64,000 bases of DNA from a virus (IMGVR_UViG_3300020125_000155:1-64000), one strand, 5' to 3'; counted from the first letter of the stretch, positions 7,091 to 43,582 are shown. Program-made: numbers and translations. The notes: generated by a model from the sequence alone, not told the origin.

Positions 7091-7405
7091 TAGCACTAGC
7101 TTATCCGCTACGCAAACGGCGCTAGATGTGGCGTGTAGCACGTTTTCCTACACGCTAGAGGAATCTATCGTTCTTGTTATGTCTAACTTGTCGTGCAGTG
7201 CAGCAATGCCGGTTCCATCGGTACTTCTTGCGTTGACTTATAAATCAACATGCGAGTTATCCCCTATCCATCGCACCTAATAGTTATCTCGCACTGCAAT
7301 AACCGTTGTGCCGCAGCGGTTTCTTTGATTCCGAATCACTAATTCACCAGAATCACAGAATCGAGTTTGCTAGTATTGGTTATCGGTTGGGATGAGCCAA
7401 TCGGT

Positions 7406-11598: not shown

Positions 11599-12026
11599 TC
11601 GAAATAGCCGTTCTCAAACGCAAATCCAAATACGCGGGCGAGACCGGCTTATTCGCCGTCGATCAGGTGGCGGACGATGAGATTAAGCGGATGCCAAACG
11701 ATGAGGCTCCGTTGTGGGCGGAGATAACCACTCCGCAGAATATCAAGTTACTACGTTTGCTTTGGGCCGTGGCGCAAAAGCTCGCAGACGGCGGATTATA
11801 CCAAGACAAAGACGAGGCGATGATTGACCTCAAGATTCGCGCCCGTCATGCTCAGTTCGCGGTGGAAAAGGGACGCACGGTAATTGTACCGCGCACACTC
11901 AGCCGCATGGGTCGCGCCGCTCTTAGCAGACTTGCCGATAGGTTCATTTTCATTGTGTGCCAAGACCTCCTCCCGGGCATGGAGGAAAGTGCGTTTCGGG
12001 CGGAGCTAGAGGAAATGTTAGGATGA
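11595..12026 (+). CDS. Hypothetical protein (143 aa)
   Basis: ATGA-coupled to both neighbours. No family recognised. Confidence 0.6.
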   Translation: MIEIAVLKRKSKYAGETGLFAVDQVADDEIKRMPNDEAPLWAEITTPQNIKLLRLLWAVAQKLADGGLYQDKDEAMIDLKIRARHAQFAVEKGRTVIVPRTLSRMGRAALSRLADRFIFIVCQDLLPGMEESAFRAELEEMLG

Positions 12027-12430
12027 ACTCCTGCGCCTATCCACACTGCGGTTGTCCCGTTTCTTTTCCGAAAGGCTATAAACCTAGCGATGCCACGGAA
12101 TGTCCGATGACATGCCATTTAGACTTTATCCGCTCGCTACCCTGCCTCAAATGCGGGAAGGCCCCGAGTGAAGCGGCGCATGTGCGCTACTCGGATGCTA
12201 GAGCGGCGAAGGTCAATCCTGGTTTCGGTGCGAAACCCGAAGATCGCTGGTCCGTTCCGCTATGCGCCTCTTGTCACCGTGGCCTCAAAGGACAGCACAG
12301 CAGGGGGGAATATAAATTTTGGACTGAAACGGGCATTGATCCAATTTTTATAGCCCTTGCATTATGGGGGGTTACAGGGAGTTACGAAGATGGCTGTCAA
12401 ATCGTCAGACACGCCTATTTCCACTCGTAA
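12023..12430 (+). CDS. Cys/His zinc-finger nuclease-like protein (DUF968-like)
   Basis: 135 aa from ATG 12023. LPCLKCGK...AAHV...GFGAKPEDRWSVPLCASCHRGLKGQH resembles the phage DUF968/Ref-type HNH-like motif. Confidence 0.5.
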   Translation: MNSCAYPHCGCPVSFPKGYKPSDATECPMTCHLDFIRSLPCLKCGKAPSEAAHVRYSDARAAKVNPGFGAKPEDRWSVPLCASCHRGLKGQHSRGEYKFWTETGIDPIFIALALWGVTGSYEDGCQIVRHAYFHS

Positions 12431-12992
12431 ATGTGCGCGTTGTGGGCGGCTGTTTTCAAAAGACAGACGATATTCACAAGCACAATGGGACGAGCAGAGT
12501 TATTGCAGCCACCATTGTGCTAGATACGCGCGCTGCGAAAAACCGATATTGCCGCTATTCTTTAACCAAATCCGGGTCGACCCAATTACAAAGTGTTGGA
12601 TTTGGACCGGCCCCACAGATGAGAAGGGTTACGGGCTAGTCACAGTAAACCAAAAAACGAATCGGACTCATCGCGCGCTATTCTCCATCACTGTGTCAGA
12701 CATACCAAAGGGGATGAAAGTTTTGCATCGCTGCGACGTTCCTGCGTGCTGCAACCCCTATCATCTATTTTTAGGCACGGTGAAGGACAATGCCGACGAT
12801 ATGATGATGAAGGGACGAGGAGCGGAGTTAAAGGGAACTGAGGTTTGGAACGCGCGATTAACTGAAGCAGAGGTTTTAGCCATTCGTGCCGACTCTAGAA
12901 CGCAAGAAGAAATAGCCGCTACTTACCAAATTGCCCAAACTACGGTTTCGGCCATTAAGCGGCGCGCTAACTGGGGTCACTTGCCGGATTGA
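12390..12992 (+). CDS. HNH homing endonuclease with C-terminal HTH
   Basis: CWIWTGPTDEKGYG...HRALF...GMKVLHRCDVPACCNPYHLFLGTVKDN, with a C-terminal QEEIAATYQIAQTTVSAIKRR helix-turn-helix. Confidence 0.75.
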   Translation: MAVKSSDTPISTRKCARCGRLFSKDRRYSQAQWDEQSYCSHHCARYARCEKPILPLFFNQIRVDPITKCWIWTGPTDEKGYGLVTVNQKTNRTHRALFSITVSDIPKGMKVLHRCDVPACCNPYHLFLGTVKDNADDMMMKGRGAELKGTEVWNARLTEAEVLAIRADSRTQEEIAATYQIAQTTVSAIKRRANWGHLPD

Positions 12993-13038: not shown

Positions 13039-13992
13039 ATGAACCTCTCCGCCCTCATCGAGTCGTACCGGACTGATAAGGTCTCGCCCTATCAGAAGGT
13101 CCGGTATCGGTCCCAGAAGCACTATGATTCGTTGCTTCGGGTAATCGAGCAAAGCGACCACAGGGAGGTAGGGGTGCTAAAGAACCGCGACCTCCTGGAG
13201 CTTCATGCCGACTGGTCCGCTAGGGGTATCTCCATGGCCCATAGCCTTATGACCATGCTCCGGACGCTGGCGAGCTATGGTTCCTCAGTCTTGGAGGATG
13301 ACGACTGTGCGAGGCTTTCTGCCCGTTTACGGGGCATGAAATTTGAGAACGGCAAGCCCCGGGTCTCCCGTATTACCAGAGAGCAAGTAATTGCCGTGCG
13401 CCGTCAGGCCCGTCTTATGGGACTGGGCTCTGTAGCCTTAGCCCAAGCCTTCCAATTCGATCTTATGCTTAGGCAAGGGGACGTAATCGGCCAATGGGAA
13501 CCGGAGCGGTTAGGGGCCGAATCGGACGTGCGCTGGCGCGGGGAGGTCTGGGTAAGGGGTCTCCGGTTTGAGGAGATATCGGCACAAATCTTGCGTCACG
13601 TCACCAGTAAGAGGGGCAAGGCAATCGAAGCCGATTTGAGCCTTGCGGGGATGGTACTGGAGGAACTTGATTATGTGTGGCCCATATACAAGCGCCCGGA
13701 ACGCGGTCCTATCGTTATATGCGAAAGAACGGGGTTCCCTTGGCAATCTCACTCGTTCCGTTCTGAGTGGCGTAAGGTCGCCCGCGCTGCGGGTATTCCT
13801 GATAGCGTGTATAGTATGGATTCTCGCGCTGGTGCTATTAGCGAAGCTACTGACTTGGGGATTCCAACGGAGCTAGTCCGCCACGCGGCTACGCACTCCA
13901 ACGCGACCACGACCGAACGCTACAGCCGGGGCGCGGCGGATAAGGTGCGTGAGGTCCAGAGGATCAGAGCGAACGCGGCTATTGGGGGTTAG
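13039..13992 (+). CDS. int: Tyrosine recombinase / phage integrase
   Basis: 317 aa. The C-terminal catalytic region has HSFRSEW (H-x-x-R) and HATHSNATTTERYSRG (His ... Tyr nucleophile). Confidence 0.85.
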   Translation: MNLSALIESYRTDKVSPYQKVRYRSQKHYDSLLRVIEQSDHREVGVLKNRDLLELHADWSARGISMAHSLMTMLRTLASYGSSVLEDDDCARLSARLRGMKFENGKPRVSRITREQVIAVRRQARLMGLGSVALAQAFQFDLMLRQGDVIGQWEPERLGAESDVRWRGEVWVRGLRFEEISAQILRHVTSKRGKAIEADLSLAGMVLEELDYVWPIYKRPERGPIVICERTGFPWQSHSFRSEWRKVARAAGIPDSVYSMDSRAGAISEATDLGIPTELVRHAATHSNATTTERYSRGAADKVREVQRIRANAAIGG

Positions 13993-21219: not shown

Positions 21220-21890
21220 TAGTATGCCGATTGTCCGTGGTAGCGGACTATAACACGCGGTCGCCCAAATACGCTAATTCCGGCTAATTTGCGTCCCGAA
21301 CTGGTAACTACTGTCACAGCCCGCACAATGTCGTTTACCGCGTCCGGGTCATGGTCGCTGCACGTATGGCAGTCAGGACGCTCGATAAAGGTCAGATTGG
21401 CGGGGTTAAACCCGGGGCCAGGAACCAGCCTGCCGCAGCCTAGCCCCCCAGTATCGGCGCAATTCGGGTTATAGGTCTCCTGGGCCCGCAAGACATTGCC
21501 GGGGATGGGAATACCCCCGCACCATTCCGACACCTGTATGACCGCTATTAGGTCAATGCGATGCCTTGTACCGGCAGCAACGTCCGGGGCATGGTTTGCC
21601 CCGCAGGAGAACCCAATAACGACCTCTTTAACCGTGGCAGGATCGGCACTTATCGCATTCGCTACGGATTGCGTGTCCGTATATTGGTAAATAACGACAC
21701 GGGTAACGCTGGGGATTCTAGCCACTCTTGCCGCGATGTTATCCATTCCCCCATTGTCAAAAGCCTCCCCGCCAAGCGGCAGAAGGGCATAAACATGGGT
21801 TCCGCTCGTAGAGCTAGGGTCCGGTACAGGGATTACCGGGGCTGTGGCGCAGCCAGCAAGCACCAGCGCGGCAAAAATCGTCGCTCTCAT
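21219..21890 (-). CDS. Lipoprotein with G-x-S-x-G nucleophile-elbow motif (putative esterase/lipase-fold)
   Basis: MRATIFAALVLAGCATAP (lipobox LAGC). VVIGFSCGAN contains GFSCG. It lies directly downstream of the endolysin gene. Confidence 0.5.
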   Translation of the reverse strand: MRATIFAALVLAGCATAPVIPVPDPSSTSGTHVYALLPLGGEAFDNGGMDNIAARVARIPSVTRVVIYQYTDTQSVANAISADPATVKEVVIGFSCGANHAPDVAAGTRHRIDLIAVIQVSEWCGGIPIPGNVLRAQETYNPNCADTGGLGCGRLVPGPGFNPANLTFIERPDCHTCSDHDPDAVNDIVRAVTVVTSSGRKLAGISVFGRPRVIVRYHGQSAY

Positions 21891-22537
21891 CGTCCAACCC
21901 CCATAACTTGAAGGTCTTGAGGATCGTAAGCCTTCCCGTAGGCAAGGGGAATACGATCATATTTCGCCGTATAGCCCTCTAGTGGTGCCTTGGCGGGTGG
22001 GAAAGCTAAGCCCAAGCTATAGGCCCGCAAATCTACAATCCGCGCTGACCAGCCGCCGCGATAGACCGGCCAAGTCCCCAAGCCCTGCAAAAATCTAAGC
22101 CGCGCGTCACAGAGACCGTTGATAAACGCCCGTGGCTCACAGCCGTTGATTGCGGTCAGCGTCTTATTGCCGAGTATTCCATCAATATCGCTACCCGTAA
22201 AACCAACTACCCTTTGTGCGTACTTGACCGAGCGAGACGGGCCAGAGTTCACCCCAAAGTCAAACACCACACAATCCGCGCCCACGTTGAGAGCGTTAAA
22301 GGCGCAAGCCGTAGCGTATTTGGTAGCATAAATATCGTCGGCTTCCGACAACGGCATTGCCCGGACCAGTGGTGCCCATCGCACCATGGAATCCATAGCC
22401 TCATGGCGATGCTCCGCTAGGTCGTAACAAGTAATTCCGTATTTGGTCGGTCCACCGGGGTCGTTACGGTCCCAGCCATAGCCCCCTTCGTAGCGCCCCA
22501 CCATTCTTTCAACGAAAGCTTTATAATCAATTATCAT
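21887..22537 (-). CDS. Endolysin, GH108 N-terminal domain plus PG_binding_3-like C-terminus
   Basis: 216 aa from ATG 22537 (ATGA-coupled). RYEGGYGWDRNDPGGPTKYGIT is the GH108 signature. The C-terminal RLRFLQGLGTWPVYRGGWSARI is peptidoglycan-binding-like. Confidence 0.8.
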   Translation of the reverse strand: MIIDYKAFVERMVGRYEGGYGWDRNDPGGPTKYGITCYDLAEHRHEAMDSMVRWAPLVRAMPLSEADDIYATKYATACAFNALNVGADCVVFDFGVNSGPSRSVKYAQRVVGFTGSDIDGILGNKTLTAINGCEPRAFINGLCDARLRFLQGLGTWPVYRGGWSARIVDLRAYSLGLAFPPAKAPLEGYTAKYDRIPLAYGKAYDPQDLQVMGVGR

Positions 22538-23889
22538 GTAGTTAGCGTTTGCAGTTGTGTGGCTGTTGCGGCGATGGTCCACGCGCCGAATTGTTGATAG
22601 TTTCCGTAAACATTTGAGCCACTACTTGTGCTACCAATCTCAAGACTCGTTGGCGCAGACGCAAACAAATTATTGCTGTCAGTTGCGGCAGGATTCCCAT
22701 TCGCAGAAATTCCTCGGCTTCCGGTCGTGCCTCCCGCTGCAATAACATTCTTCGCTGACCATGAGGTTATTCCAGTTGTAAGGGTATGACCGGCACCATC
22801 CGCAGTTGCCGCAAGGCTTGATGAGCTTTGAAATATCTTCGACCCGGCATTATTATCACCAACAAGCCTGCTCGACACAAATTGCTGATTGATGGTATTG
22901 CTGAAAAACGTGGCGGTAGTTGCCGTCCACGGAACAGTTAAAATATCCGCCACTCGCTGCACCGTTCCCGATGTAGTCGGGATGTAGGAGGAGGCGAAAG
23001 CGAGGGCCTCAAGCTGCGCGCCCCATAGGTAAATCCCATTGCCTGTCACGCCGAGATAACTTTGCGTATTGTTGGCTGTTGCAATCCCAACTGTGAAGAA
23101 TTCTTGTGAAGCGCCTGTACCTCCAGTGCGCGTTACCGTGCAGCGATACCACCCATTCCCAACATTATTAATAGTTGCGGTACTGCCAGCGGCATTAGTT
23201 CCGACAACACCGTTAGACAGATCAAAAAACGTATCATGGAACACATTGTTCGTGACCGCACTGATTACCAGCCATGTACGTTCCGCAGCTTTAGCGTAAA
23301 CTGACCATGTCCAAGGCACTGCCGTAAGAGTAAAGCTCTGCGATGTTTGATGTAATCCGTTGCTATTATCCTCCGCGAGCTTATCTGCCGTAGTCGTGCC
23401 ATCTGGAGCCGCTATGGCATTCGCAGAAACCGTTACACCTGTTAGAAAAGCGGTCCATACGGCATCATCAAGCTCTTGCGAATGTAGGCACACATTCATG
23501 CTTGCCCCTTCGAGCAAAATCCCTTTCGGCGTTAGCGCGACCGGATCATAGTTGAAACGCAGCACGTTATTGCCAGCACTTGCCAACAACCCAGATGAGT
23601 TGGTGTAGGTCGCTGGTGAGGCGCGAGTGAAAGTACCGCTGATAACGGCAAGCCAAGATGCAAAAGACCCGTAAACAGTCCCGTTGTACCAATAATTATT
23701 GGTTGTTCCCTCAGTCGTAAAATCGGCATATAGAACGGGCTTCGTCGTGCCAACCAAAGGAAGCCATGGAGGCCCACCTGGAACACGTCCGGGTCCCGGG
23801 AATATAATGTTCTGTGCAATTACTCTGCGACAAGACGCGGCTAAGACGGCGGCGGAGGCTGCGCCGCGCAAAAACAATCGTCGCGTCAT
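22534..23889 (-). CDS. Fibre-like lectin-fold protein carrying a twin-arginine (Tat) signal
   Basis: The N-terminus MTRRLFLRGAASAAVLAASC matches the Tat motif (S/T)RRxFLK plus an h-region. The body contains GIYLWGAQLEALAFASSYIPTTSG, typical of phage fibre or LamG-like domains. Confidence 0.55.
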   Translation of the reverse strand: MTRRLFLRGAASAAVLAASCRRVIAQNIIFPGPGRVPGGPPWLPLVGTTKPVLYADFTTEGTTNNYWYNGTVYGSFASWLAVISGTFTRASPATYTNSSGLLASAGNNVLRFNYDPVALTPKGILLEGASMNVCLHSQELDDAVWTAFLTGVTVSANAIAAPDGTTTADKLAEDNSNGLHQTSQSFTLTAVPWTWSVYAKAAERTWLVISAVTNNVFHDTFFDLSNGVVGTNAAGSTATINNVGNGWYRCTVTRTGGTGASQEFFTVGIATANNTQSYLGVTGNGIYLWGAQLEALAFASSYIPTTSGTVQRVADILTVPWTATTATFFSNTINQQFVSSRLVGDNNAGSKIFQSSSSLAATADGAGHTLTTGITSWSAKNVIAAGGTTGSRGISANGNPAATDSNNLFASAPTSLEIGSTSSGSNVYGNYQQFGAWTIAATATQLQTLTT

Positions 23890-24509
23890 CTAATTACACG
23901 CCAGTTAATAGTCACCGCGCCGGGAGTTATTGACGAATCGGTGTTATTGCACACCTTAAAATTCACGGTATCCGCAGTTGGATAGACCATAATAATCAGC
24001 ATTCCCGTTGTCAGCGGTATATAGCCCGTCACCGCCGTAGGATCGGCACTGAATGACGCAAAAATTACATCCGTAGTTAGCACTCCAGTTGCCGAAGCGG
24101 TCTGCGCCGCCGTGCAAGTGGCCGATGAAATCGAACCTGTCGCCAGAGTTTTCGCGCCAAAAGCGATAGTCTGTGACATAACGGCAGTGCCGTTGAGGGT
24201 TATATTTATCCCGCCAGTAGCTCCACCAACATTAGTGAACGCGATGTTGCCGCCAGTGTTTGTGACAGAAAAACACAGGCTGTTGTAAGGTCCGGTAGGA
24301 GGTCCGCTGTTCTGGCAAATCCCCGCCCCTTGAGCGACCACACCGATACTTGTGAGAAATGGTATAGCCGCATTGCCGCAGTCTTGGGCAACGCCGTTTG
24401 TCGTCCAACACACAGCATGGCCGGGCGTTACAAAACCGGATTGTTTTACCGACTGTGCGGCGCAAGGAGTCGCCAGCAATAACGCGAGAAAGAGCGTTAT
24501 GAGCTTCAT
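23886..24509 (-). CDS. Fibre-tip-like protein with Sec signal peptide
   Basis: MKLITLFLALLLATPCAAQS, then SGFVTPGHAVCWTTNGVAQDCG, a motif shared with the next gene. Confidence 0.55.
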   Translation of the reverse strand: MKLITLFLALLLATPCAAQSVKQSGFVTPGHAVCWTTNGVAQDCGNAAIPFLTSIGVVAQGAGICQNSGPPTGPYNSLCFSVTNTGGNIAFTNVGGATGGINITLNGTAVMSQTIAFGAKTLATGSISSATCTAAQTASATGVLTTDVIFASFSADPTAVTGYIPLTTGMLIIMVYPTADTVNFKVCNNTDSSITPGAVTINWRVIR

Positions 24510-25000
24510 GGCAATGGCTGGTAAAAAATACTTACGTTTGCGGTAGCGGGAACCCCCTGCGGGGTTTGCACACGGAAATAAAGCACAGGATCGGACAGGG
24601 CTATCGTGTTCTGGTTATTGACGGTCAACGATTGAGCGTTATTGCTCGTATCCGCCAGAGACGTTGTAATTGTTACTGCCGTTCCGCTAGTGACAACCGC
24701 AACCCCACCCGCCGCCTGTGCCGTAAAAACGCCGCATGTAGCCGACGAAAGCGAAGCACTGGCTCCGCTAATGTTTATGCCGTGAATCCGGTATCGAGTG
24801 TACCCAGCAGGCAAGTTGATCGGAATGGCGGTGTCGGTATTGCCCGCATTGAAATTGACGGCGATTACCCCACTGACCAGCATCCCGTAGAGATTGGTCA
24901 GAGCTACGCCAGCATCCTGCGCTATGCCATCGGTTGTCCAAGACGCCAGATGACCAGGAGTTACACTGCCTGATTGAAGAATGGGCGAGCCAGTGGGCAT
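24506..25000 (-). CDS. Fibre-tip-like protein, signal-less paralogue
   Basis: The N-terminus QSGSVTPGHLASWTTDGIAQDAG is paralogous to 23886..24509. The remainder is Gly/Thr/Ser-rich. Confidence 0.6.
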   Translation of the reverse strand: MPTGSPILQSGSVTPGHLASWTTDGIAQDAGVALTNLYGMLVSGVIAVNFNAGNTDTAIPINLPAGYTRYRIHGINISGASASLSSATCGVFTAQAAGGVAVVTSGTAVTITTSLADTSNNAQSLTVNNQNTIALSDPVLYFRVQTPQGVPATANVSIFYQPLP

Positions 25001-25479: not shown

Positions 25480-26085
25480 TCACGATTTGGCGCGGCGAGT
25501 TAGGGTGAAAATTATATCCCATACCGCATTGACGTGATCGCGCACCGCCTCTTGTAGATATTGTTCGTTACGCACACGCAATTCCGGCGCGATAAGGTAG
25601 CCCCAGCCGAAGTCGAAATCGCACTTAATCGGGTAATGATCTAGCTTCTGGGCATCACGCCAACCCTTGTTGAAATACAACATTGAGTTATCACAGATCG
25701 GAGGCCATGCGTGAAATGGGTCCTGTACCGCACGCATTGACGACCAGTAGGGCACAACAATAGTCATTTTTGCGCCCGCCTTGAGAATTCGCCAACACTC
25801 GTCCATGAACGGGAGCCGTTCAGGGCCGGTCAGATGCTCAAGAAAATGGGCGGTGTAAGCCTCGTCTACCGACTCGTCGTCAAGCGGCCAAGGGTACTTT
25901 TGCAAATCATAAACGTAATCGGCCCCGACATCGGGACTAATATCAATGCCAATCCAGTTGTCGCCCCATTGCTCTTTTGGTTCCGGGCGGCGTTGACCGC
26001 AGCCCAGATCAAGCCGTAACGGGTCGCCGGGTTTCTTTGGTGCGAAATTTACCGCTGTGACTTCTTTGAGTTTCGTCTTTGCCAT
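25480..26085 (-). CDS. Class I SAM-dependent methyltransferase
   Basis: 201 aa from ATG 26085 (GGTGGGAG RBS). LDLGCG motif I, HFLEHL, ILKAGAKMTIVVP. The start lies 77 nt inside the upstream SDR gene. Confidence 0.65.
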   Translation of the reverse strand: MAKTKLKEVTAVNFAPKKPGDPLRLDLGCGQRRPEPKEQWGDNWIGIDISPDVGADYVYDLQKYPWPLDDESVDEAYTAHFLEHLTGPERLPFMDECWRILKAGAKMTIVVPYWSSMRAVQDPFHAWPPICDNSMLYFNKGWRDAQKLDHYPIKCDFDFGWGYLIAPELRVRNEQYLQEAVRDHVNAVWDIIFTLTRRAKS

Positions 26086-26890
26086 TAACCCGCTCCCACC
26101 TTCTGTTTTCGTACTCAATGCAATCGCGCAGCGCATCCCGCACTGGTCGTAGACGGAAACCCGCTTGTTCTGCCTTGGACGTATTAAGCGTGCAGAACGA
26201 GCGTTCCGCCTTAACTGTTTTCAAGAAAGCATCTTCGCTTGCAAACCACTGTTTTTTCAAGCCAAGAAGAGAAATAATTTCTTTCGTCGTCACCGAACCA
26301 GGATTGGTAAAATTGTAAACTCCCGGCGCTGGCCTTTGGCTCACAGGAAGCTCACACAGCCAAGCGATAGCATCGGCGGCGTCGTCCAGACACGTCAGGG
26401 AATTCTCAGAGTCAATAAGAATTGGATAGCTACCCAGTTTGGTGAGTAGATTGCGCGGGTCAGGTCTATACGAAAACGGCATCCTAATTCGCAGCACATA
26501 AGATCGCGGACCAATCCTGCGCTCCGCTATTCCCTTGCAGACGGAATAGAACGAACCGAAGAAATTTTGCCCGTTTCCTTCACTCCACGGGCCACCCTCG
26601 TACAAACATCCGCTACCAATGTGGATAACCGGGCGCGTCCCGGCGCGGACATTGCATTCCATCGGCCAAAGGATATTGCCCTCAATACATTCCGCACGAT
26701 GAATTTCGCAAGCATCTACGTTAGGACGCCCGACATACCCAGCCGCATTGATAACAAAATCTCTTATGGAGTGCGGTTCGTGCTCCCAGCTTTCGCCGTG
26801 ATGAGCCCAGTTGAAGCGTAACCCCCGCGCCGTTAGCGCCTCCGAGATGGCAGTACCGACATAACCATGACCAATAAGTGTAATCACCAA
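26009..26890 (-). CDS. SDR-family sugar-nucleotide reductase/epimerase (RmlD-like)
   Basis: Rossmann motif IGHGYVG at the N-terminus and the catalytic Y-x-x-x-K (YSVCK). 293 aa. Confidence 0.65.
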   Translation of the reverse strand: MVITLIGHGYVGTAISEALTARGLRFNWAHHGESWEHEPHSIRDFVINAAGYVGRPNVDACEIHRAECIEGNILWPMECNVRAGTRPVIHIGSGCLYEGGPWSEGNGQNFFGSFYSVCKGIAERRIGPRSYVLRIRMPFSYRPDPRNLLTKLGSYPILIDSENSLTCLDDAADAIAWLCELPVSQRPAPGVYNFTNPGSVTTKEIISLLGLKKQWFASEDAFLKTVKAERSFCTLNTSKAEQAGFRLRPVRDALRDCIEYENRRWERVNGKDETQRSHSGKFRTKETRRPVTA

Positions 26891-26903
26891 ATCACGTCCT
26901 GTA

Positions 26904-27176
26904 TTAACCAGCGATACCGATAGGCGTCACGCCAGCCTGCGCTTGCTGTTGCGCCACTGTCGTTTCGATCTGCTTAACATTGAAAATCGTCCAGGACACC
27001 AAATCCGCCACCCATTGCAATAATGTCTGTGCTGGCGTGGGCGTGGGCGGCAATAGTGCCGCGTCGAGGATATTCCAGGCATTGAGCAACCGCTGTACGT
27101 CAGCATCCGGGAACGTGTAGGCTTTTGAGCCGTTGACAACGCCAGAACCAGACAGAGTGAAGGTCAATGTCGCCAT
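26904..27176 (-). CDS. Hypothetical protein (90 aa)
   Basis: ATG 27176 with a GAGGAGG RBS. It sits between the GT and SDR genes. Confidence 0.5.
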   Translation of the reverse strand: MATLTFTLSGSGVVNGSKAYTFPDADVQRLLNAWNILDAALLPPTPTPAQTLLQWVADLVSWTIFNVKQIETTVAQQQAQAGVTPIGIAG

Positions 27177-27187
27177 AACAGCCTCCT

Positions 27188-27910
27188 CTACCACATAGTA
27201 TCGTCTATTTCTGAGTAGTGCCCAACTTTTATCGAGCAATCTATCGCACAGCGATAGCCGCATTTACGAGCATCCGACCAGAAATAAAGGTCTTGCGTTG
27301 TCATCCCCTCTGTCCGTGAGGATGTTGTTTTGAACCATGGACGACGCAATTTCGGGTCCTTAAACATCGCCAGCCGGAATACGGTGAAGCCCATTCCAGT
27401 GCCGTTGCATTCAACTAACCCGCCATTAACATCGGGTTTTTGCGGGCGGAAATTGAAGGGGGCTGAATGAGGGTCGCCCCAAATTTGGGCTACCCCACCG
27501 TGGCCTTTGGTGAAATACAACCCACCAATAGCTGCATACTCGGGGTGCTTCTCCATTTTCGCAAGCAAGTTAAGAACACCATCGGGCGGCGGAGCATTGT
27601 CAGATTCAATGAAAAGAACATACTTCCAGTTTGACAGGTCGGGGTGGATTAAGATGCTTTCGATAGTTCGCGTATAGGCTTCACCAATTTCCATGCCCGC
27701 AGTGAACAAACGACAAGTTCGATTGTTGGGCGGAGACATGAGACCCAGCCACGAAGAAACCACACGGATAGGAACCGGCTTGATGGTGGGGATAACAATA
27801 ACTGTGGATAAATCCTTATAGGCTACACCTTGGTCAAGACGTTCTACGGCCTTGTCCAAGTTAGCATTGTGCTTGCCGCCATCGTATGCCGAAATAATCT
27901 GTGGGATCAT
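27188..27910 (-). CDS. GT-A fold glycosyltransferase (GT2-like)
   Basis: STVIVIPT, the FIESDN acidic motif and QDLYFWSDARKCGY...VGH. The start is ATGA-coupled to the stop of the 995-aa fibre gene. Confidence 0.55.
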   Translation of the reverse strand: MIPQIISAYDGGKHNANLDKAVERLDQGVAYKDLSTVIVIPTIKPVPIRVVSSWLGLMSPPNNRTCRLFTAGMEIGEAYTRTIESILIHPDLSNWKYVLFIESDNAPPPDGVLNLLAKMEKHPEYAAIGGLYFTKGHGGVAQIWGDPHSAPFNFRPQKPDVNGGLVECNGTGMGFTVFRLAMFKDPKLRRPWFKTTSSRTEGMTTQDLYFWSDARKCGYRCAIDCSIKVGHYSEIDDTMW

Positions 27911-30894
27911 AGCGTGTTGACGTTGTTCACATTAAAATACGGTATTCCGTAAGTTTGGTTTCCTACGGCGGTATTTATGGTCACTGGGTTCACTTGCGTT
28001 AAACCGATTGTACCGGGGAACGCCCCAGTCGTAGTACCATAAGTACCTTCAAATTGCAGCGGCGCAAGCCAAGCGCGGCTAAAGACGCTATCAACCAAAA
28101 ATCCTATGCCGCCAGCACTCCCCGAGATACCGGCATCCAATTGTGCCATAACCGCACTCATCGAAAGTATATTGGAGCCAGTCGATGACGTTGACGCGAT
28201 TAGCCCAAGCCAATACTCACCCGGCGTCATTAACGTAGCCATCGGCACAGTTGCCAACTTCATGCCGCGAGCCATCGTGGCAAGACCGCTCCCGGCAGAG
28301 GAGGTCGAGGCCCCGCCCCAACTCACTTTATAGCTTGCATTACTGCTTCCGGAAAAGAAGCCCGCCTGCGACGTGCTGAAAATTGTCGAGATATTGCTGG
28401 TATTCACCGTATCGCGGGTGAATAGTGCAACTGATAGGGTGTGCGATACCGCGTAACTTGCTGACGCGCCGGTTCCTGCGCTAACGCTGGATAAAAGATT
28501 TAACCGGCTTACAGTCATCGGCCATGGCACATTAAATGGAATTAGCCACAGGCTGTTTTGTCCAAGCGACAAATTGAAAGAGCCTGCAAACTCCCGTGGC
28601 TCCCACGCCGACATGGCCGCTGGTGCGGATAAGACAATCGAACTGTTGGAATAACCAGCACTGAGAATACCGACCGCATCAATCGAATGAGTGCGAGCAT
28701 CCAATGTCGTGCTTGATGATTGGCCTGTGGTGTTCCCGACCGCATAAAAACCTTCAGTTTGATTGGATTGATTGAAGGCTGAAACTGTAACAGTCGCGGA
28801 TTGCCCGTTTACCGATCCTGACAATGTAATGTTATTGCCACCGGCAAGAACCAGTTGGGCGTTAACCGTTCCTGACGTGCCCGACGTATTGCCTATACTC
28901 GATATGCCGCCGCTGAAATTACCGCCGCCAACCGAGGGGACGGAAATAATAACAGAGCCGCCAGACATACCGACCGACGCCACACCCGCCCCATCAAAGC
29001 TTAACGAGCGTGCGTCAACTGTGGTCGAAGAACTTGCCGTTGTCGTATTGCCGACCGCATACAGCCCCATCGTTTGCGCGCTTTGCGAGGCCGAAATGTC
29101 CATCGAGCCAGCGGAAAACCCGACCGTCACAATGCCGTCGCCACGGAAGCTGAGTGTCCGCGCGTCTACCGTAGTTGACGAACTCTCTGTAGTATTGCCG
29201 AGGCCGTATAAGCCAAGCGTCTGATTACTCTGCGCCGCGACAGATGCCGATATGATTAAGTGACTATTTGAGGACCACCCGACCGATACAATGCCGTCAC
29301 CGTCTATCGAGAGAGAACGTGCGTCATGCGTAGACGATGAACTGGTGCCGGTTGTATTACCCGAACCATAAATTCCTAGTGTCTGGTTGGTTTGTGCTGC
29401 GTCCGTTGCGGAAATAACGACCGAACCCGCCGAATAGCCAACGGACACAATTCCCGCGCCGTCGAACGAAATAGTACGCGCGTCTACCGTAGTTGACGTT
29501 GATTGCCCCGTGGTGTTCCCAACCGCATAAAGCCCCGCGCTCTGGTTCGTTTGAGCGGCTACCGATGCCGAGATAATCAAATGGCTGTTGCTAGACCAGC
29601 CCACCGATACGATCCCGTCGCCATCAATGGTCAGCGACCGCGCATCGTGCGTGGAGGACGACGATGTTCCTGTTGTGTTTACCGACCCGTAAATACCCAA
29701 CGTCTGATTTGTCTGGGCGGCGTCTGTCGCAGAAATAACAACTGACCCAGCCGAATATCCGACTGAGACAATCCCGGCACCATCAAACGAGAGTGTGCGC
29801 GCGTCGAGTGTAGTAGATGAACTTTGTGCGGTGGTATTCCCGACCGCATAAAAACCTTCAGTTTGATTGGTCTGAGCCACCGTAGTAGCGGAAATCAGGA
29901 GCGAGCCGCCTGACATGCCGACGCTGACAATGCCCTGACCCACATGCGTAAACGAGCGTGCGTCAACGGTAGAGGACGAGGATTGCCCGACTGTCTGACT
30001 CGAAGCGTAAACCCCGATGCTCTGATTGGTTTGCGCGATTGTATTGGGGGCTGAGATGAGTAAGTGGCTGTTGTTCGTACTCCACCCTACGGAGACAGCA
30101 CCAAGACCTTCTATGGTCAGAGAACGGGCGTCATAGGTAAGAGACGAACTGTTGCCAGTCGTGTTTTGTGAAGCGTATACGCCGTCCGTCTGATTGGTTT
30201 GTACGCCGGATAACACCAAAGTCCCGGCTGAGAACCCCGCCGATATAAGGCCCGCAGCACTGATGGTGACATTGTTCAAAGTGGTGCTGGAGCTTTGGGC
30301 GGTAGTATTGCCGCTGGCACCCCAAGTCTGTGCCGCCGCCGCCGCCGATGGCACTGAGATAACCACAGAGCCACCGGACATACCCACCGAGGCGATTCCG
30401 GCCCCATCGAAACTCAGCGAACGTGCATCAAGCGTGGTGGACGAAGATTGCCCCGTGGTGTTCCCAACCGCGTAGAAACCTTCGGTCTGTACCGACTGGC
30501 TGGCCGAAACTATGAGATGGGAATTGTTCGACCAGCCTACGCTTACGATGCCGTCGCCATCCAGCGTTAAGGACCGCGCATCGTAGGTAGCGAATGAGGA
30601 CTGCCCGGTAGTATTGACGGAACCGTAAACACCTAGTGTCTGGTTGGTTTGCCCGCCACCCGCTGCTCCGGAAAATATAATTGATTGGTTTAGCGTATCA
30701 GCGGATAGCGTAATGTTGTTGCCGCCCGCCAGCACGATCCCGGTTCCAGAAATCGTGGAGCCGCCCCCGGCAAAATTGCCGCCAAGCGTTATTGTCTGAT
30801 TATGGACTGAGTTCCAGTCGGATGGTCTAACAATAGAGGTCGCCGGGTCATCGGCAACCGTCTGATTGTAAACATGCTTGATTTGTCCGACCAC
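27907..30894 (-). CDS. Large repeat-containing tail fibre/spike (995 aa)
   Basis: N-terminal VRPSDWNSVHNQT is fibre-like. About twelve ~53-aa repeats follow (QTNQTLG-YGS-NTTG-SSS-T-DARSL--DGDGIVSVGWS-NSHLIISAS, alternating with ...FDGAGI-SVG-S-GSVVIS), then a distinct ~230-aa C-terminal domain. Confidence 0.75.
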   Translation of the reverse strand: MVGQIKHVYNQTVADDPATSIVRPSDWNSVHNQTITLGGNFAGGGSTISGTGIVLAGGNNITLSADTLNQSIIFSGAAGGGQTNQTLGVYGSVNTTGQSSFATYDARSLTLDGDGIVSVGWSNNSHLIVSASQSVQTEGFYAVGNTTGQSSSTTLDARSLSFDGAGIASVGMSGGSVVISVPSAAAAAQTWGASGNTTAQSSSTTLNNVTISAAGLISAGFSAGTLVLSGVQTNQTDGVYASQNTTGNSSSLTYDARSLTIEGLGAVSVGWSTNNSHLLISAPNTIAQTNQSIGVYASSQTVGQSSSSTVDARSFTHVGQGIVSVGMSGGSLLISATTVAQTNQTEGFYAVGNTTAQSSSTTLDARTLSFDGAGIVSVGYSAGSVVISATDAAQTNQTLGIYGSVNTTGTSSSSTHDARSLTIDGDGIVSVGWSSNSHLIISASVAAQTNQSAGLYAVGNTTGQSTSTTVDARTISFDGAGIVSVGYSAGSVVISATDAAQTNQTLGIYGSGNTTGTSSSSTHDARSLSIDGDGIVSVGWSSNSHLIISASVAAQSNQTLGLYGLGNTTESSSTTVDARTLSFRGDGIVTVGFSAGSMDISASQSAQTMGLYAVGNTTTASSSTTVDARSLSFDGAGVASVGMSGGSVIISVPSVGGGNFSGGISSIGNTSGTSGTVNAQLVLAGGNNITLSGSVNGQSATVTVSAFNQSNQTEGFYAVGNTTGQSSSTTLDARTHSIDAVGILSAGYSNSSIVLSAPAAMSAWEPREFAGSFNLSLGQNSLWLIPFNVPWPMTVSRLNLLSSVSAGTGASASYAVSHTLSVALFTRDTVNTSNISTIFSTSQAGFFSGSSNASYKVSWGGASTSSAGSGLATMARGMKLATVPMATLMTPGEYWLGLIASTSSTGSNILSMSAVMAQLDAGISGSAGGIGFLVDSVFSRAWLAPLQFEGTYGTTTGAFPGTIGLTQVNPVTINTAVGNQTYGIPYFNVNNVNTL

Positions 30895-37558: not shown

Positions 37559-37900
37559 CTATCCTATCCCTAATATCGCGCCAATTCGGACATGCTCATC
37601 CCCGTTAAGTCTAAGCCATTGTTGGAATTGGCCCGGGTCCTCCCAGTCTAACTCTAAAAGGTTATAGCCGCTAGTTCCGAGTGCGGCATTGGCCTGATCG
37701 TGGGCGATTTGGTGATTGTATAACCACATCCCCAAGTCGTTTGGGTCTACCTGATTAAGAAGAAAAGTCTGCAACCCGGTCACATTTTTAAGGGTCGTTA
37801 TGGCTGGTATCCAATCGTAGTGTATCGCCCCGTGATTAAAGGCCCACGCATCCCACCCTTCCTGGTCCTTTGGGGCGGTATAAAGAAAAGGTAAACTCAA
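37559..37900 (-). CDS. Hypothetical structural protein (113 aa)
   Basis: Trp/His-rich. ATGA-coupled to the HNH gene upstream. Confidence 0.55.
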   Translation of the reverse strand: MSLPFLYTAPKDQEGWDAWAFNHGAIHYDWIPAITTLKNVTGLQTFLLNQVDPNDLGMWLYNHQIAHDQANAALGTSGYNLLELDWEDPGQFQQWLRLNGDEHVRIGAILGIG

Positions 37901-38361
37901 GACCCAATCTCCTTTTGAGAGTGGGGAACCATTCCTTTACGCAGCCTAAACCTACGCTGCCACTCCCTTTGGCAACTTCTACAATCGCGCCCGCCACCAA
38001 CCTTTATGTAGGTGTTTTCTAATGTGTATTCATGGCCTTGAGGACAATGTGTTTTAGATTTTTGCCAGTCGCTTAACTGCTTAGGAGATTTGCCGCGCAG
38101 CACATTTATCCGCCGCGATACCGGCTCTAGGTGGTCTGGATTTATGCAGCAGCGATTACGGCAGAGATGATCTATTTCAAGCCCAGATGGGATTTCCCCT
38201 CTCGATAGCTCATAAGAAATGCGATGTGCTTTGCGAGCCTTGCCATCAAAATGAATTCTACCATAACCGCCTCCGTCAAGCGCCCCAACCCATACCAAAC
38301 ATCCCGAATTTGGCTCAGGCACAGAATAAAATTCAAGCCTTTCGGCTATCGCTCTAATCAT
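37897..38361 (-). CDS. HNH homing endonuclease (free-standing, inside tail module)
   Basis: CLVWVGALDGGGYG...AHRISYELSRGEIPSGLEIDHLCRNRCCINPDHLEPVSRRIN. Paralogous to the genes at 10143 and 12390. Confidence 0.8.
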   Translation of the reverse strand: MIRAIAERLEFYSVPEPNSGCLVWVGALDGGGYGRIHFDGKARKAHRISYELSRGEIPSGLEIDHLCRNRCCINPDHLEPVSRRINVLRGKSPKQLSDWQKSKTHCPQGHEYTLENTYIKVGGGRDCRSCQREWQRRFRLRKGMVPHSQKEIGS

Positions 38362-39233: not shown

Positions 39234-39875
39234 TTAAGCCCTGTATAACGCTTTCAACGATTCGCTTATCTTTATTCTTGTTTCGACGGACAGGGGTTTG
39301 CCAACCCTTGCGGCGTGAAGCCTATCCATCAACCCTTTTGGTCTTGGTACACCCCTTCTTGCCGCCCGTAGCTTTGCCTTAAACTCTTCCGTCCTTGGCC
39401 TTGAAGCGGATGCTATGGACAGCTTTTTCCGATGTTCTGCGGTAAACACCTTCCCTTTATTTGCAAGCCCAATCCTACGTTTCGTTTCCTCCGAACACAC
39501 CTTACCAATCTGCCAAGCAGACATTTTCTGGCGAACTTCATCGGAAAGAGTAAAACCGTAAATCCGTTCTCCCCCACTGGTCAAATTATAGCCATGGGGG
39601 GAAAGGCAATTATACTGGACTATCAACCCCCTCTCCCGCGCTGCGGCATTTTCAAAACCAATAATATCTTCAACCATTTCAACCGTAAATGCGGACTTTC
39701 CGTACAGGGCAATCGCAGCGGATATCGCGCTCCGCTTTCTGGACTTTGCAGAAAATTGAACATGCTGTGACCACCTAAACCTTACCGAGCGGCTAGTCAT
39801 ACCAATGTAAATCTTGCCATTTACAAGATTGGTAATTTTATAAATGTGAAACAATCTATGCACGGTACTGAACAA
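39234..39875 (-). CDS. GIY-YIG homing endonuclease with NUMOD3-like repeats
   Basis: IYKITNLVNGKIYIGMT...R...H, YG and E motifs, then five S/T-x-E-x-R-x-K-hS repeats. Visibly lower GC than its flanks. The start overlaps the end of the 783-aa gene by 20 nt. Confidence 0.8.
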   Translation of the reverse strand: MFSTVHRLFHIYKITNLVNGKIYIGMTSRSVRFRWSQHVQFSAKSRKRSAISAAIALYGKSAFTVEMVEDIIGFENAAARERGLIVQYNCLSPHGYNLTSGGERIYGFTLSDEVRQKMSAWQIGKVCSEETKRRIGLANKGKVFTAEHRKKLSIASASRPRTEEFKAKLRAARRGVPRPKGLMDRLHAARVGKPLSVETRIKISESLKALYRA

Positions 39876-42655: not shown

Positions 42656-43582
42656 TTAGTACCTCCCATACGGATTCACGACCCGCCCAATCCTCGCATA
42701 TTGCGATTTACGCAGGCACATATTGTCGAACAAATCGAGATAAAACTTACCGGCGTTAAAGTTCTGGATTCCCAGATAGGCGAGATGGGCCGCAAAATAC
42801 GGGACAACATCATCCCATGGCGGCTGAATAATCTCTACGCTCTGGTCATCGGTCAAATCTTGCGGAATGCACTGGCAATCCCACTCCATTTGATAGGTCT
42901 GGGACGGAAGCGGGTACATATAAAACGACCCTGACGCGCCCTGACCGAATTGCGAGCCGAATGTGGGGACGTACTGATACTGAAACGGGTACTGGCGAAT
43001 CATCGCCTGATAGGTCGAGAACGAGTAAACCGGCACTGAGTATCGGTAGTTGGAATAAATTATGGACACCCCGCGCACGGCATAAACCGATTCCACCCCC
43101 GGGAACTCGGACAAGTCCACATCGGCAAAGTTATAGACCTCCTGCCCGCGATTTAGCGTATTGACGAATTTAACGGTGGGCGTAACGGTCGCACCTACCC
43201 CCGTTGGATCGGTGATCGTCATAACGGGGATAAAATAACCAGCACCGCCGTATATATTGTTGATCCCGGTAATAACGCCGTTGAATACCTGCGCCGTCGC
43301 TTGGGCTTGCGCTCCGTTGGGAAGCGGGGGCGCGCCAGAAGGAAAATCCGGAGGCGTAATTACGCAAACCGGGGAGGTATAACCGCTCCCGCCACTGGTT
43401 ACAGTCCATTGGGTAATCTGCCCGCTAACCGTCGTTAACACGCGAACGCACTGGGTACGTTCGGCAATCTCACGGCGAGCGCGATTGATGTATTCGATTA
43501 AATCTTCGGGATTGAATAGCTCTTGCTTCTCATCCCGAAGGAATCTCTGCGTTTGCTGGAGATAGTCGAACAGCGTACTCAT
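42656..43582 (-). CDS. Structural protein with two G-x-G-Y modules (308 aa)
   Basis: SGGSGYTSPVCVI and GGAGYFIPVMTI. ATGA-coupled to the upstream gene. Confidence 0.55.
   Translation of the reverse strand: MSTLFDYLQQTQRFLRDEKQELFNPEDLIEYINRARREIAERTQCVRVLTTVSGQITQWTVTSGGSGYTSPVCVITPPDFPSGAPPLPNGAQAQATAQVFNGVITGINNIYGGAGYFIPVMTITDPTGVGATVTPTVKFVNTLNRGQEVYNFADVDLSEFPGVESVYAVRGVSIIYSNYRYSVPVYSFSTYQAMIRQYPFQYQYVPTFGSQFGQGASGSFYMYPLPSQTYQMEWDCQCIPQDLTDDQSVEIIQPPWDDVVPYFAAHLAYLGIQNFNAGKFYLDLFDNMCLRKSQYARIGRVVNPYGRY

Follow-up and report, generated by a model that had tools for sequence, protein, structure and literature searches.

Giant viruses offer one of the closest enzymatic parallels to the locus described here, since in them a GT-A glycosyltransferase, a methyltransferase and an NRS/ER-type synthase together place (methylated) rhamnose on a surface structure. 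For example, the chlorovirus PBCV-1 protein A064R combines rhamnosyltransferase domains with a methyltransferase domain, and Mimivirus, whose fibril is glycosylated, encodes the UDP-L-rhamnose synthase L780. The archaeal virus STIV encodes A197 (2c0n), a small, soluble, stand-alone GT-A enzyme proposed to glycosylate a structural protein of its own virus. Long, beta-rich repeat adhesins of bacteria follow a similar logic: AIDA-I and TibA are heptosylated by Aah and TibC, and HMW1 is N-glucosylated by HMW1C, in each case by a soluble, dedicated transferase encoded beside the adhesin, which acts at many of the repeats while the protein is still in the cytoplasm, ahead of export or assembly. Genes that modify the surface glycans of the host lie beside tailspike genes in phages, as in the gtrABC genes of P22 and oac of Sf6. 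Among tailed phages, experiments have demonstrated that phage-encoded glycosyltransferases modify both the capsid and the tail tube in mycobacteriophages Che8, Corndog and Myrna (Freeman et al. 2023, summarized in PMC12363180 and PMC10877033); in these accounts the enzymes are soluble, relatives also encode a methyltransferase, and virion proteins of the same phage are the cytoplasmic targets.

We analyzed a 64,000-nt stretch of DNA (the window) from an uncultured phage (IMGVR_UViG_3300020125_000155:1-64000), in which a sequence-only reading had proposed a fibre gene coupled to a cassette for virion-fibre glycosylation. ORF calling returned five minus-strand ORFs with the coordinates and strand given in that reading:

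27907..30894, minus strand, fibre gene, 995 aa
30700..30894, minus strand, conserved N-terminal domain of the fibre, residues 1-65, motif VRPSDWNS.H
28621..30663, minus strand, repeat region of the fibre, residues ~78-758
27910..28620, minus strand, C-terminal non-repeat domain of the fibre, residues ~759-995
27188..27910, minus strand, GT-A glycosyltransferase (GT), 240 aa, soluble
26904..27263, minus strand, small ORF; 90-aa version at 26904..27176 with ATG at 27176
26009..26890, minus strand, SDR, 293 aa
25480..26136, minus strand, methyltransferase (MT), longest ORF; the JGI call is 201 aa, 25480..26085

The order of transcription is fibre, GT, 90-aa ORF, SDR and MT. The plus strand reads TCAT at 27907-27910, giving ATGA on the coding strand, so the stop of the fibre gene overlaps the start of the GT gene as had been suggested. 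Promoter-like and terminator-like sites between 21000 and 37000 were not above shuffle expectation, which fits a single, compact operon. The cassette is a three-gene part of a late structural operon, comprising fibre, GT and SAM methyltransferase, and it is extended here by a predicted NDP-L-rhamnose synthase and the 90-aa ORF. In agreement with the proposed absence of membrane partners, no 19-residue stretch of the GT, the SDR or the MT scores higher than 1.6 on the Kyte-Doolittle scale, and every ORF in the window stays at three hydrophobic segments or fewer, so nothing resembling a Wzx/Wzy/Gtr partner is seen within it. The description of the phage as podovirus-like is based on a match of p308 to the SU10 adaptor. 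Genes for further fibre-like proteins lie downstream of the MT, and one of these, p451, has an RcGTA head-spike-fibre domain, a weak hint of an alphaproteobacterial host.

The fibre, GT and MT genes recur as a group in hundreds of phage contigs from the environment. In IMG/VR, 80/80 loci have the MT directly downstream of the GT (median gap 49 nt), although the comparison used the best-scoring loci, which are partly related to each other, so that such counts overstate their independence. In GTDB assemblies the same arrangement is present in 13 of 15 loci, the other two contigs ending less than ~840 nt from the GT, and the MT is the core partner of the GT. A fibre-family protein, as defined by single-linkage clustering, occurs in 76/81 loci. 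In the reverse direction, both enzymes are present in 38/38 loci where the fibre N-terminal domain is followed by 6 kb or more of sequence. The commonest flanking gene family reaches 33/81 loci at most; only for the fibre family does co-occurrence with the enzymes approach 100%. The GT/MT pair always lies in the structural module beside the fibre and on the same strand, in contigs of 42 to 187 kb with differing terminase and portal types; it is the cassette that is conserved, not the phage as a whole. The linkage between fibre and enzymes is therefore much stronger than could be known from the sequence alone, with near-obligate synteny in diverse phage backgrounds. It differs in this respect from the mycobacteriophage systems, since here the enzymes are locked to a single substrate-candidate gene over very diverse uncultured phages. 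Synteny of this kind demonstrates functional linkage rather than the identity of the acceptor.

These observations lead us to suggest that the phages probably sugar-coat their own fibre, a reading to which we assign a probability of roughly one half. Synteny in both directions, with the cassette kept across differing phages, is one argument for it, and others are the soluble nature of the enzymes, the lack of any multi-pass membrane protein in the window, the late operon and the ATGA coupling. The mycobacteriophages provide a precedent, although the targets in the published summaries are capsid and tail-tube subunits whereas the candidate here is the fibre, and glycosylation is in our case deduced from the genes. 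That precedent also lends some weight to the idea, which we consider doubtful, that the acceptor is a different protein travelling with the fibre gene: a virion protein (capsid, adaptor, p148, p164, p207 or p451) or a host protein required for fibre assembly. The podovirus MW202524 has three more GT genes right after its major capsid protein gene, and the fibre-like proteins encoded past the MT, including p451 with its GTA domain, also count in its favour. However, p148, p164, p207, p1036 and p619 had matches in 0 of the 80 loci and p451 in 1, and near-complete co-occurrence with the enzymes is confined to the fibre family.

The main rival, which we regard as unlikely but the best placed of the alternatives, is that the soluble GT and MT act at the cytoplasmic face of the membrane and decorate an LPS, capsule or EPS intermediate of the host with a methylated deoxyhexose, as a branch or a cap. 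The altered receptor of the neighbouring fibre would then cause superinfection exclusion, or prevent progeny from being trapped on debris. Glycosyltransferase and O-acetylase genes adjoining tailspike genes are known in serotype-converting phages, soluble GT-A and methyl-capping enzymes do work on lipid-linked glycans, and rhamnose and O-methyl-rhamnose are frequent in bacterial surface polysaccharides. Lysogeny also remains conceivable, given a weak integrase-like ORF at 13039-13992 (PF00589, E 2.2e-4, below the cut-off). The glycan-modifying genes of P22/SfV (gtrABC) and Sf6 (oac) adjoin the gene of a receptor-binding protein, as here, but these loci need the membrane proteins GtrA, GtrB and GtrC, lie next to an attachment site, with expression from the prophage. 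The genes in the window are instead in the middle of a late structural operon and coupled to the fibre, neither beside attP/int nor independently promoted, and no flippase, GtrB-type transmembrane glycosyltransferase or GtrC-like protein is encoded in the window. Furthermore, the GT is 55-64% identical across phages, whereas fibre bodies fall to 30-40% and have differing C-termini. This greater conservation of the GT fits a conserved acceptor and not a host-specific glycan, since the distal parts of the fibres, and presumably receptors and hosts, vary widely and acceptor-specific serotype-converting GTs are highly divergent. The strictest linkage is with the conserved N-terminal domain of the fibre and not with its variable distal end.

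The predicted GT structure has a GT-A fold (AF2 pLDDT 85.8), in line with the original assignment, and its best PDB match by Foldseek is STIV A197 (E 2.6e-10, TM 0.73 on target, 18% identity), which itself lacks a methyltransferase partner or fibre linkage and whose substrate is likewise putative. The neighbours that follow are mostly protein glycosyltransferases (human LH3 GT domain, ColGalT1, GalNAc-T2), with SpsA also present; this counts in favour of the fibre reading. Mimivirus R699 and a PBCV-1 protein are among the structural neighbours, and a GT-FkbM methyltransferase fusion is found among the viral ones. The family comprises 4665 homologous database clusters. A tblastn search of 50,697 phage records found no member in cultured phages, returning three metagenomic podoviruses only, and detected no sequence relationship to the mycobacteriophage GTs. 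Nearly all of the best 150 representatives are stand-alone proteins of ~240 aa, and no GT-fibre fusion was found. Across two family alignments, with 23 and 27 members at 52-73% identity to the window GT, the invariant residues are E102, D104, N105, D110, GTGMGF at 170-175, Q206-D207-L208 and G230-H231.

Assembly-chaperone genes typically come after fibre genes, and this position raises the idea that the GT-A protein, perhaps with the MT, is catalytically inactive and serves as a chaperone or adaptor binding the fibre N-terminus. In the metal-binding motif, E-(H/S)-D takes the place of a canonical D-x-D, and the Pfam GT2 match is below the cut-off (19 vs 23.3 bits). We nevertheless consider this the least probable of the alternatives, because E102, D104, N105, D110, Q206-D207 and H231 are invariant in both alignments, the MT retains its DLGCG SAM-binding motif, and the cassette has repeatedly acquired a dedicated nucleotide-sugar synthase and additional sugar O-methyltransferases, insertions that would have no purpose unless the enzymes carry out sugar chemistry.

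The MT passes the Pfam Methyltransf_11 threshold (30 bits vs a cut-off of 21.2; AF2 pLDDT 90), bearing out its placement in class I, and the motifs GHGYVG, YSVCK and LDLGCG named in the sequence-only reading are all found. Fold searches gave generic methyltransferase matches with no clue to the substrate, the neighbours being small-molecule methyltransferases. This is one reason to consider that the product of GT, MT and SDR might be a metabolite or a DNA base carrying sugar and methyl groups, with no relation to the virion surface; DNA protection is often proposed for phage GTs, and glycosylated hypermodified bases are reported to be widespread (PMC13326640). Such a role is improbable, as the GT/MT pair is unaccompanied by a base-hydroxymethylase, kinase or other DNA-hypermodification gene, is always beside the fibre in the structural module on the same strand, and the closest structural neighbours of the GT are not DNA glucosyltransferases.

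The SDR matches bifunctional NDP-4-keto-6-deoxyglucose 3,5-epimerase/4-reductases (4qqr, E 2.7e-25) and is a direct homologue of Mimivirus L780 (7jid, E 1.6e-18), with conservation of the residues aligned to C115, Y144, K148 and K183 of 4qqr. Although its Pfam score is below the curated cut-off, we predict a bifunctional NDP-L-rhamnose synthase of the plant/Mimivirus (NRS/ER) type. It had been called RmlD-like: the SDR assignment holds and can be made more specific, and the gene is accessory and not core, being present in 2/80 related loci (L066 and L078, in the equivalent position between GT and MT) and in none of the 50,697 deposited phage records. Other phages have TylE/MycE-like deoxysugar O-methyltransferases inserted at the same position in the cassette (8ia9, E 3.4e-21; 3ssm, E 1.9e-17), and together these insertions point to an O-methylated 6-deoxyhexose, as the suggestion of a methylated deoxysugar had anticipated. 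The chemistry indicated by the rhamnose synthase, the deoxysugar O-methyltransferases and the GT-FkbM fusion gives further support to fibre glycosylation. The giant viruses differ in having eukaryotic hosts, large multi-gene clusters and complex glycans, whereas here a minimal two-enzyme core resides in a bacterial tailed phage. The 90-aa ORF has an AGGAGG ribosome-binding site 5 nt before its ATG at 27176, gave no Pfam, PHROG or NCBIfam match, and has no counterpart in related cassettes (no tblastn match in 160 related loci).

The fibre is rich in Ser and Thr (29% together) and Gly (13%), and had no match in Pfam or among PDB sequences. None of its 846 homologues at E<=1e-5 has an annotation other than 'trimeric autotransporter adhesin'. 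Where about twelve ~53-aa repeats had been described, 11 are clear and one, at residues ~180-227, is degenerate. The units are anchored on D-A-R-[ST] with a spacing of 50-56 aa and a mean pairwise identity of 57%; their consensus is AQTNQTxGxYAxGNTTGQSSSTTxDARSLSFDGxGIVSVGxSxGSxxISA, with S(-6), T(-2), D-A-R, G10, G15 and S17 invariant. A GGNNITLS module breaks up the repeat region at residues ~640-700, and the repeat unit is also present in a related fibre of 1725 aa (L004). The N-terminal domain is the part most conserved between phages (55-69% identity, many IMG/VR loci), with R23, P24, S25, D26, N28, S29 and H31 invariant in one alignment, and the rest of the fibre diverges. The C-terminal domain, presumed to be the distal or receptor-binding part, is homologous to the C-terminus of a 598-aa protein of MW202524 (31.7% over residues 656-992), which is encoded upstream of the cassette-type GT in that phage.

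The estimate of roughly three dozen N-x-S/T tripeptides was accurate, as the fibre has 38 (NTT 11, NQT 10, NQS 4), to which the parts outside the repeats contribute 4 (residues 1-77) and 5 (residues 759-995); so was the mention of SSSST-type runs, with twelve runs of at least four Ser/Thr residues (SSSTT and similar). Composition-preserving shuffling (2000 shuffles) gave 17.2 +/- 3.4 sequons, with a maximum of 32, but the copies are not independent, because a unit consensus with two sequons was duplicated. Most related fibres lack such an excess: the z-score of their sequon count is mostly between -1.5 and 2 and is at least 3 in only 6/79. As an argument for glycosylation the richness in N-x-S/T is thus weak, and the sequon count is no evidence for Asn-linked modification. 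The motif GNT.G is found in 56/72 fibres, and about three in four have the VRPSDWNS.H N-terminus; no acceptor motif is universal. This weighs against fibre glycosylation, as do the absence of a cultured-phage GT member and of a GT-fibre fusion, the uninformative MT fold, and the GT and SDR Pfam scores below their cut-offs.

If the fibre is the acceptor, a host 4,6-dehydratase would supply NDP-4-keto-6-deoxyglucose, which the phage SDR would convert to NDP-L-rhamnose in a single step. The soluble GT, translated straight after the fibre, would then put the 6-deoxyhexose on the newly synthesized fibre in the cytoplasm, much as the adhesin transferases do, although those are GT-B-like or GT41 enzymes that use other sugars and have no methyltransferase. 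The likeliest acceptors would be Ser/Thr hydroxyls in G-N-T-x-G, in the S-S-S-x-T-x-D-A-R unit, or in the conserved N-terminal domain. The MT may O-methylate the attached sugar as a cap, yielding a fibre that bears O-methyl-rhamnose-type monosaccharides or short glycans. Plausible gains are that the long, beta-rich fibre would be stabilized or solubilized, or shielded from proteases and host recognition. If this is true, the cassette would represent a widespread new form of virus-encoded virion glycosylation, with the fibre as its target.

The window is a phage genome or prophage, in which a long late operon on the minus strand runs from the terminase through the endolysin and includes the following genes.

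Late operon of the window
51944-53860, minus strand: large terminase
49712-51475, minus strand: 587-aa ORF, a portal by position only, without a family match
46371-47420, minus strand: major capsid protein
42656-43582, minus strand: SU10-type adaptor
Between adaptor and fibre, minus strand: large proteins of 783, 419, 619 and 1036 aa, without family matches
27907-30894, minus strand: 995-aa fibre, after the large proteins
27188-27910, minus strand: glycosyltransferase (GT), flanked by the fibre gene and by further tail genes
26904-27176, minus strand: 90-aa ORF, after the GT
26009-26890, minus strand: SDR, after the 90-aa ORF
25480-26085, minus strand: methyltransferase (MT), after the SDR
After the MT, minus strand: three genes for small proteins of 148, 164 and 207 aa
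After the small proteins, minus strand: 451-aa protein with a GTA head-spike-fibre domain
21887-22582, minus strand: GH108 endolysin, the last listed gene of the operon

The end of the fibre gene and the beginning of the GT gene have the sequence ATGA in common, and at the later junctions the genes overlap or lie a few bases apart, with ribosome-binding sites. Promoter-like and terminator-like sites showed no excess over the shuffle expectation. The SDR frame (window 26009-26085) overruns the JGI-called start of the MT (ATG at 26085, preceded by GGGAG) by 77 nt, and the last ~25 SDR residues probably form a tail that is not conserved; a similar SDR/MT overlap occurs in L078, a related cassette locus.

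Other genes in the operon have features of their own. The 451-aa tail protein (22534-23889, minus strand) matches phrog_5939 and the NCBIfam GTA_spike_fiber domain (E 1.6e-45) and opens with a textbook twin-arginine signal, MTRRLFLRGAASAAVLAASCRRVIAQ, and the 207-aa protein that precedes it (23886-24509, minus strand) opens with a Sec-type signal, MKLITLFLALLLATPCAAQS; such export signals are unexpected in proteins of a virion tail module. The 164-aa (24506-25000, minus strand) and 207-aa proteins have no family match and share an N-proximal motif, SG.VTPGH.A.WTT.G.AQD.G, which suggests that they are paralogous small fibre or adaptor proteins. Two homing endonucleases, of the HNH (phrog_826, E 3.6e-48) and GIY-YIG (phrog_314, E 2.5e-35) types, are located within the structural operon (37897-38361 and 39234-39875, both minus strand), and a third, HNH, lies in the early region (12357-12992, plus strand).

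The protein encoded directly upstream of the GT has the tail-module position and the long, repetitive, G/S/T-rich sequence of a fibre. Its gene is downstream of those for the capsid, the adaptor and the large internal proteins, and upstream of those for the 451-aa protein and the endolysin. It matches no characterised fibre family in Pfam, NCBIfam or PDB, and its one weak PHROG match is to a family of unknown function. There are 11 clear repeat units of 50-56 aa, anchored on D-A-R-[ST], together with one degenerate unit; the mean identity between units is 57%, and Tandem Repeats Finder did not detect them in the fibre DNA because they are too diverged. The sequence-only reading had described a repeat fibre coupled through ATGA to soluble enzymes without multi-pass partners, and this description is borne out, with 38 N-x-S/T sequons and twelve S/T runs in the fibre. 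The GT, SDR and MT have no hydrophobic segments.

The same reading took the abundance of sequons as a sign of glycosylation, and this argument does not survive comparison with related loci. The 38 sequons compare with 17.2 +/- 3.4 in shuffled sequences, and the excess is due to duplication of a unit that contains two of them. In 79 related loci, the sequon z-scores of the large ORFs that precede the GT were mostly between -1.5 and 2, and only six were 3 or higher. The excess is missing from most related fibres, and was rejected as evidence for Asn-linked glycosylation. The commonest motif shared by the related fibres is often GNTAG, which is not a sequon; in the form G-N-T-x-G it is present in 56 of 72 distinct fibres and in 11 of 1237 other proteins. 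Because the sequon argument fails and the shared motif is often GNTAG, O-linkage to Ser/Thr is favoured, with low confidence.

The AF2 model of the 240-aa GT (pLDDT 85.8, pTM 0.84), together with Foldseek, shows a single Rossmann-like GT-A domain. A Foldseek search of the PDB gave 84 matches at E<=1e-3, and the best 50 of these are all glycosyltransferases or GT-A-fold proteins (E 2.6e-10 for 2c0n to E 1.1e-4). The top match is STIV A197 (2c0n), a protein from an archaeal virus, followed by the GT domain of human LH3, ColGalT1, polypeptide GalNAc-transferases, SpsA and Mimivirus R699, so that many of the nearest neighbours glycosylate proteins. The score against Pfam Glycos_transf_2 is 19.0 bits, under the gathering threshold of 23.3, and the GT is a distinct, unannotated family. 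Residues E102, D104, N105, D110, GTGMGF, Q206-D207-L208 and G230-H231 are invariant in alignments of the family. The segment E102-x-D104-N105 aligns with T-D-D-N of SpsA, and the putative metal- and nucleotide-binding motif reads E-x-D rather than D-x-D. Conservation of catalytic residues and the genomic context fit poorly with modification of DNA or a small molecule, which we regard as very improbable, and with a non-catalytic GT acting as a chaperone, which is marginally more improbable still.

The GT family is large, with 4665 clusters (90% identity) at E<=1e-5; the best 120 listed are all 238-272 aa long, and most are 60-73% identical. An identical GT protein is encoded on a 64,358-nt JGI contig. 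At 50% identity, 126 representatives fall below E 1e-30 and 340 below 1e-10, and 372 IMG/VR contigs encode a relative. Among 50,697 deposited phage records (tblastn, E<=1e-5), the GT was found only in three Manatee Spring metagenomic podoviruses. Megablast with the 16-kb region gave no match, and no deposited sequence exceeds 36% identity to TerL. The family is without a cultured member and is widely distributed in the environment.

Gene order around the GT was compared among the best-scoring loci, which are partly related, so that the following counts do not represent independent events: the MT is directly downstream of the GT in all of the best 80 IMG/VR loci, 63 of these have a fibre homologue by tblastn (upstream of the GT in every case except L020), and clustering places a fibre-family protein in 76 of 81 loci. 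Starting from the N-terminal domain of the fibre (VRPSDWNS.H), which is found on 202 IMG/VR contigs, gives the same association. Among the best 80 such loci, GT and MT are present in all 38 that extend at least 6 kb downstream; in every remaining locus without a downstream GT, no more than 3 kb of contig follows the start of the fibre. The median GT-MT gap is 49 nt, and in many loci 0-40 nt separate the end of the fibre ORF from the GT. A subfamily of IMG/VR loci (for example L022-L025, L027, L030 and L034-L037) has instead a fixed gap of 164 nt from fibre stop to GT start, with no overlap. No GT-fibre or clear GT-MT fusions were seen among the 150 best GT representatives, almost all of which are ~240 aa.

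The cassette is found in varied phage backgrounds: the commonest flanking gene family occurs in only 33 of 81 loci, the neighbouring terminase and portal types vary, and contig sizes lie between 42 kb and 187 kb. GTDB assemblies contain 15 GT matches (L086-L100), with the MT downstream in 13 and contigs that stop within ~840 nt of the GT in the other two. All 15 come from metagenome-assembled genomes, and these are assigned to widely separated groups: Patescibacteria, Dehalococcoidales, Nitrososphaerota, Chlamydiae, Gammaproteobacteria and Coriobacteriia. One match is inside a 638-kb Paceibacterota contig. Either phage contigs have been binned wrongly or the range of hosts is exceptionally wide, and the scan yielded no host assignment. 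The metagenomic podovirus MW202524.1 (L001), complete at 42.6 kb, carries its cassette GT between two paralogous methyltransferases and has three further GT genes (3147-7307 and 10160-11978), annotated as beta4glucosyltransferase, gtA and yqgM-like, the first of which is one small hypothetical gene downstream of the major capsid protein gene. Its gene content suggests a more elaborate virion glycosylation.

As judged from these comparisons, no protein family other than the fibre accompanies the enzymes from locus to locus. We consider it unlikely that another protein is the acceptor, as none co-occurs with the enzymes. The GT is 55-64% identical across loci, and the fibre bodies and C-termini fall to 30-40% identity or are replaced, a pattern that favours a conserved acceptor over a host-specific polysaccharide. 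Candidate acceptor features are the fibre N-terminal domain, the G-N-T-x-G motif and the unit core S-S-S-x-T-x-D-A-R, and a candidate acceptor peptide for the GT is GNTTGQSSSTTLDARS.

Evidence on the sugar comes from the other enzymes. The PDB relatives of the SDR are a bifunctional 3,5-epimerase/4-reductase (4qqr, E 2.7e-25) and the Mimivirus UDP-L-rhamnose synthase L780 (7jid, E 1.6e-18). It has the motifs G-H-G-Y-V-G (GxGxxG, residues 7-12) and Y-S-V-C-K (YxxxK), and the residues aligned to C115, Y144, K148 and K183 of 4qqr are conserved, C115 and K183 being the Cys/Lys pair described for epimerisation. The SDR motifs on which the protein had been called RmlD-like are present, but it is not a plain RmlD. 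It is of the NRS/ER type (its score against Pfam RmlD_sub_bind, 17.9, is under the cut-off of 27), a predicted NDP-L-rhamnose synthase that would convert NDP-4-keto-6-deoxyglucose to NDP-L-rhamnose in one step. No 4,6-dehydratase was found among the scanned ORFs, which cover part of the window, and the host would therefore have to supply NDP-4-keto-6-deoxyglucose. A search for cultured relatives returned no deposited relatives of the SDR.

The MT is a class I SAM-dependent methyltransferase, with the SAM motif I L-D-L-G-C-G and 30 bits against Pfam Methyltransf_11 (cut-off 21.2). Its AF2 model (pLDDT 90) gave 796 fold matches at E<=1e-3, generic to class I and with no pointer to a substrate, and a further generic match is to MftM (E 0.0048). 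More can be drawn from loci in which the cassette has gained genes. Extra DNA lies between GT and MT in 15 of 126 loci and encodes an NRS/ER-type SDR (L066 and L078, the only two of the best 80 GT loci with an SDR), homing endonucleases (L039, L060, L111 and L129) or a second methyltransferase (L012, 10920-11498; L056, 10976-11539). This additional enzyme shows clear homology to two macrolide deoxysugar O-methyltransferases, TylE (8ia9, E 3.4e-21) and MycE (3ssm, E 1.9e-17). By homology, the recognisable enzyme genes that the cassette has recruited more than once are confined to those predicted to make or methylate a 6-deoxyhexose. Along with one GT-FkbM-methyltransferase fusion among the viral structural neighbours of the GT, these recruited genes support a methylated deoxyhexose as the probable product, and a sugar, rather than a protein, as the likely substrate of the MT.

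The main alternative is that GT and MT modify a surface glycan of the host, since conversion genes are known beside tailspike genes. Unlike Gtr/Oac serotype-converting loci, however, the cassette has no GtrA flippase, TM-anchored GtrB or multi-pass GtrC/acyltransferase; no ORF of the window resembles a multi-pass membrane protein, and none has more than three hydrophobic segments. Gtr/Oac loci are found at a prophage end beside int/attP, whereas this cassette is inside a late operon. The sole integrase-like ORF of the window (13039-13992, plus strand; weak PF00589 match, E 2.2e-4, below the Pfam cut-off) is ~11 kb from it, near a YqaJ exonuclease (9361-10146) and an AAA ATPase (2224-3882). The cassette lacks the defining features of Gtr-type serotype conversion. 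With soluble enzymes, no membrane partners, a late-operon position and a GT that is highly conserved across different fibres all against it, modification of host glycans is improbable, if less so than a different protein acceptor. Synteny and the clues to sugar chemistry partly support the earlier proposal of fibre glycosylation, shorn of its sequon argument, and we put the probability that the fibre is glycosylated with an O-methylated 6-deoxyhexose at about 0.5.

To our knowledge, the only phages in which phage-encoded enzymes have been demonstrated to glycosylate the particle are a few mycobacteriophages, where the capsid and the tail tube are the targets. The precedent is virion glycosylation in Che8, Corndog and Myrna (Freeman et al. 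2023, as cited in PMC12363180 and PMC10877033). As in Che8-type systems, a phage-encoded GT is in or near the structural genes; unlike them, the proposed target here is the fibre, and the GTs of Che8, Corndog and Myrna have no detectable sequence homology to the window GT (tblastn, 50,697 phage records, E<=1e-5). In giant-virus systems, GT-A enzymes occur together with methyltransferases and an L780-type rhamnose synthase. By analogy, the cassette would in function most resemble these two groups, and we class it with virus-encoded glycosylation of a virus's own surface proteins. Literature searches on fibre glycosylation or a GT-MT-fibre cassette gave nothing specific; besides the mycobacteriophage precedent, they turned up speculation about other viruses. 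Minimal size, strict gene linkage and a wide environmental distribution without a cultured member are what set this cassette apart.

Our broader proposal is more tentative than that of fibre glycosylation itself: a globally distributed, self-contained cassette of a fibre with a conserved N-domain, a GT-A enzyme and an MT, in tailed phages of many uncultured lineages, may decorate the receptor-binding fibre with an O-methylated 6-deoxyhexose, the glycan, and not the polypeptide alone, sharing in host encounter or in escape from proteases or defence. The cassette is small enough for direct testing, and would provide a compact two-enzyme tool for rhamnosylation and methylation of proteins in the cytoplasm. 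If the proposal is true, it would bear on the prediction of host range from fibre sequences, fibre stability, phage immunogenicity and phage engineering. Fibre glycosylation would then be common but overlooked in environmental phages rather than a mycobacteriophage curiosity, and a large, unannotated enzyme family would mark the widespread sugar-coating of host-recognition fibres by phages.
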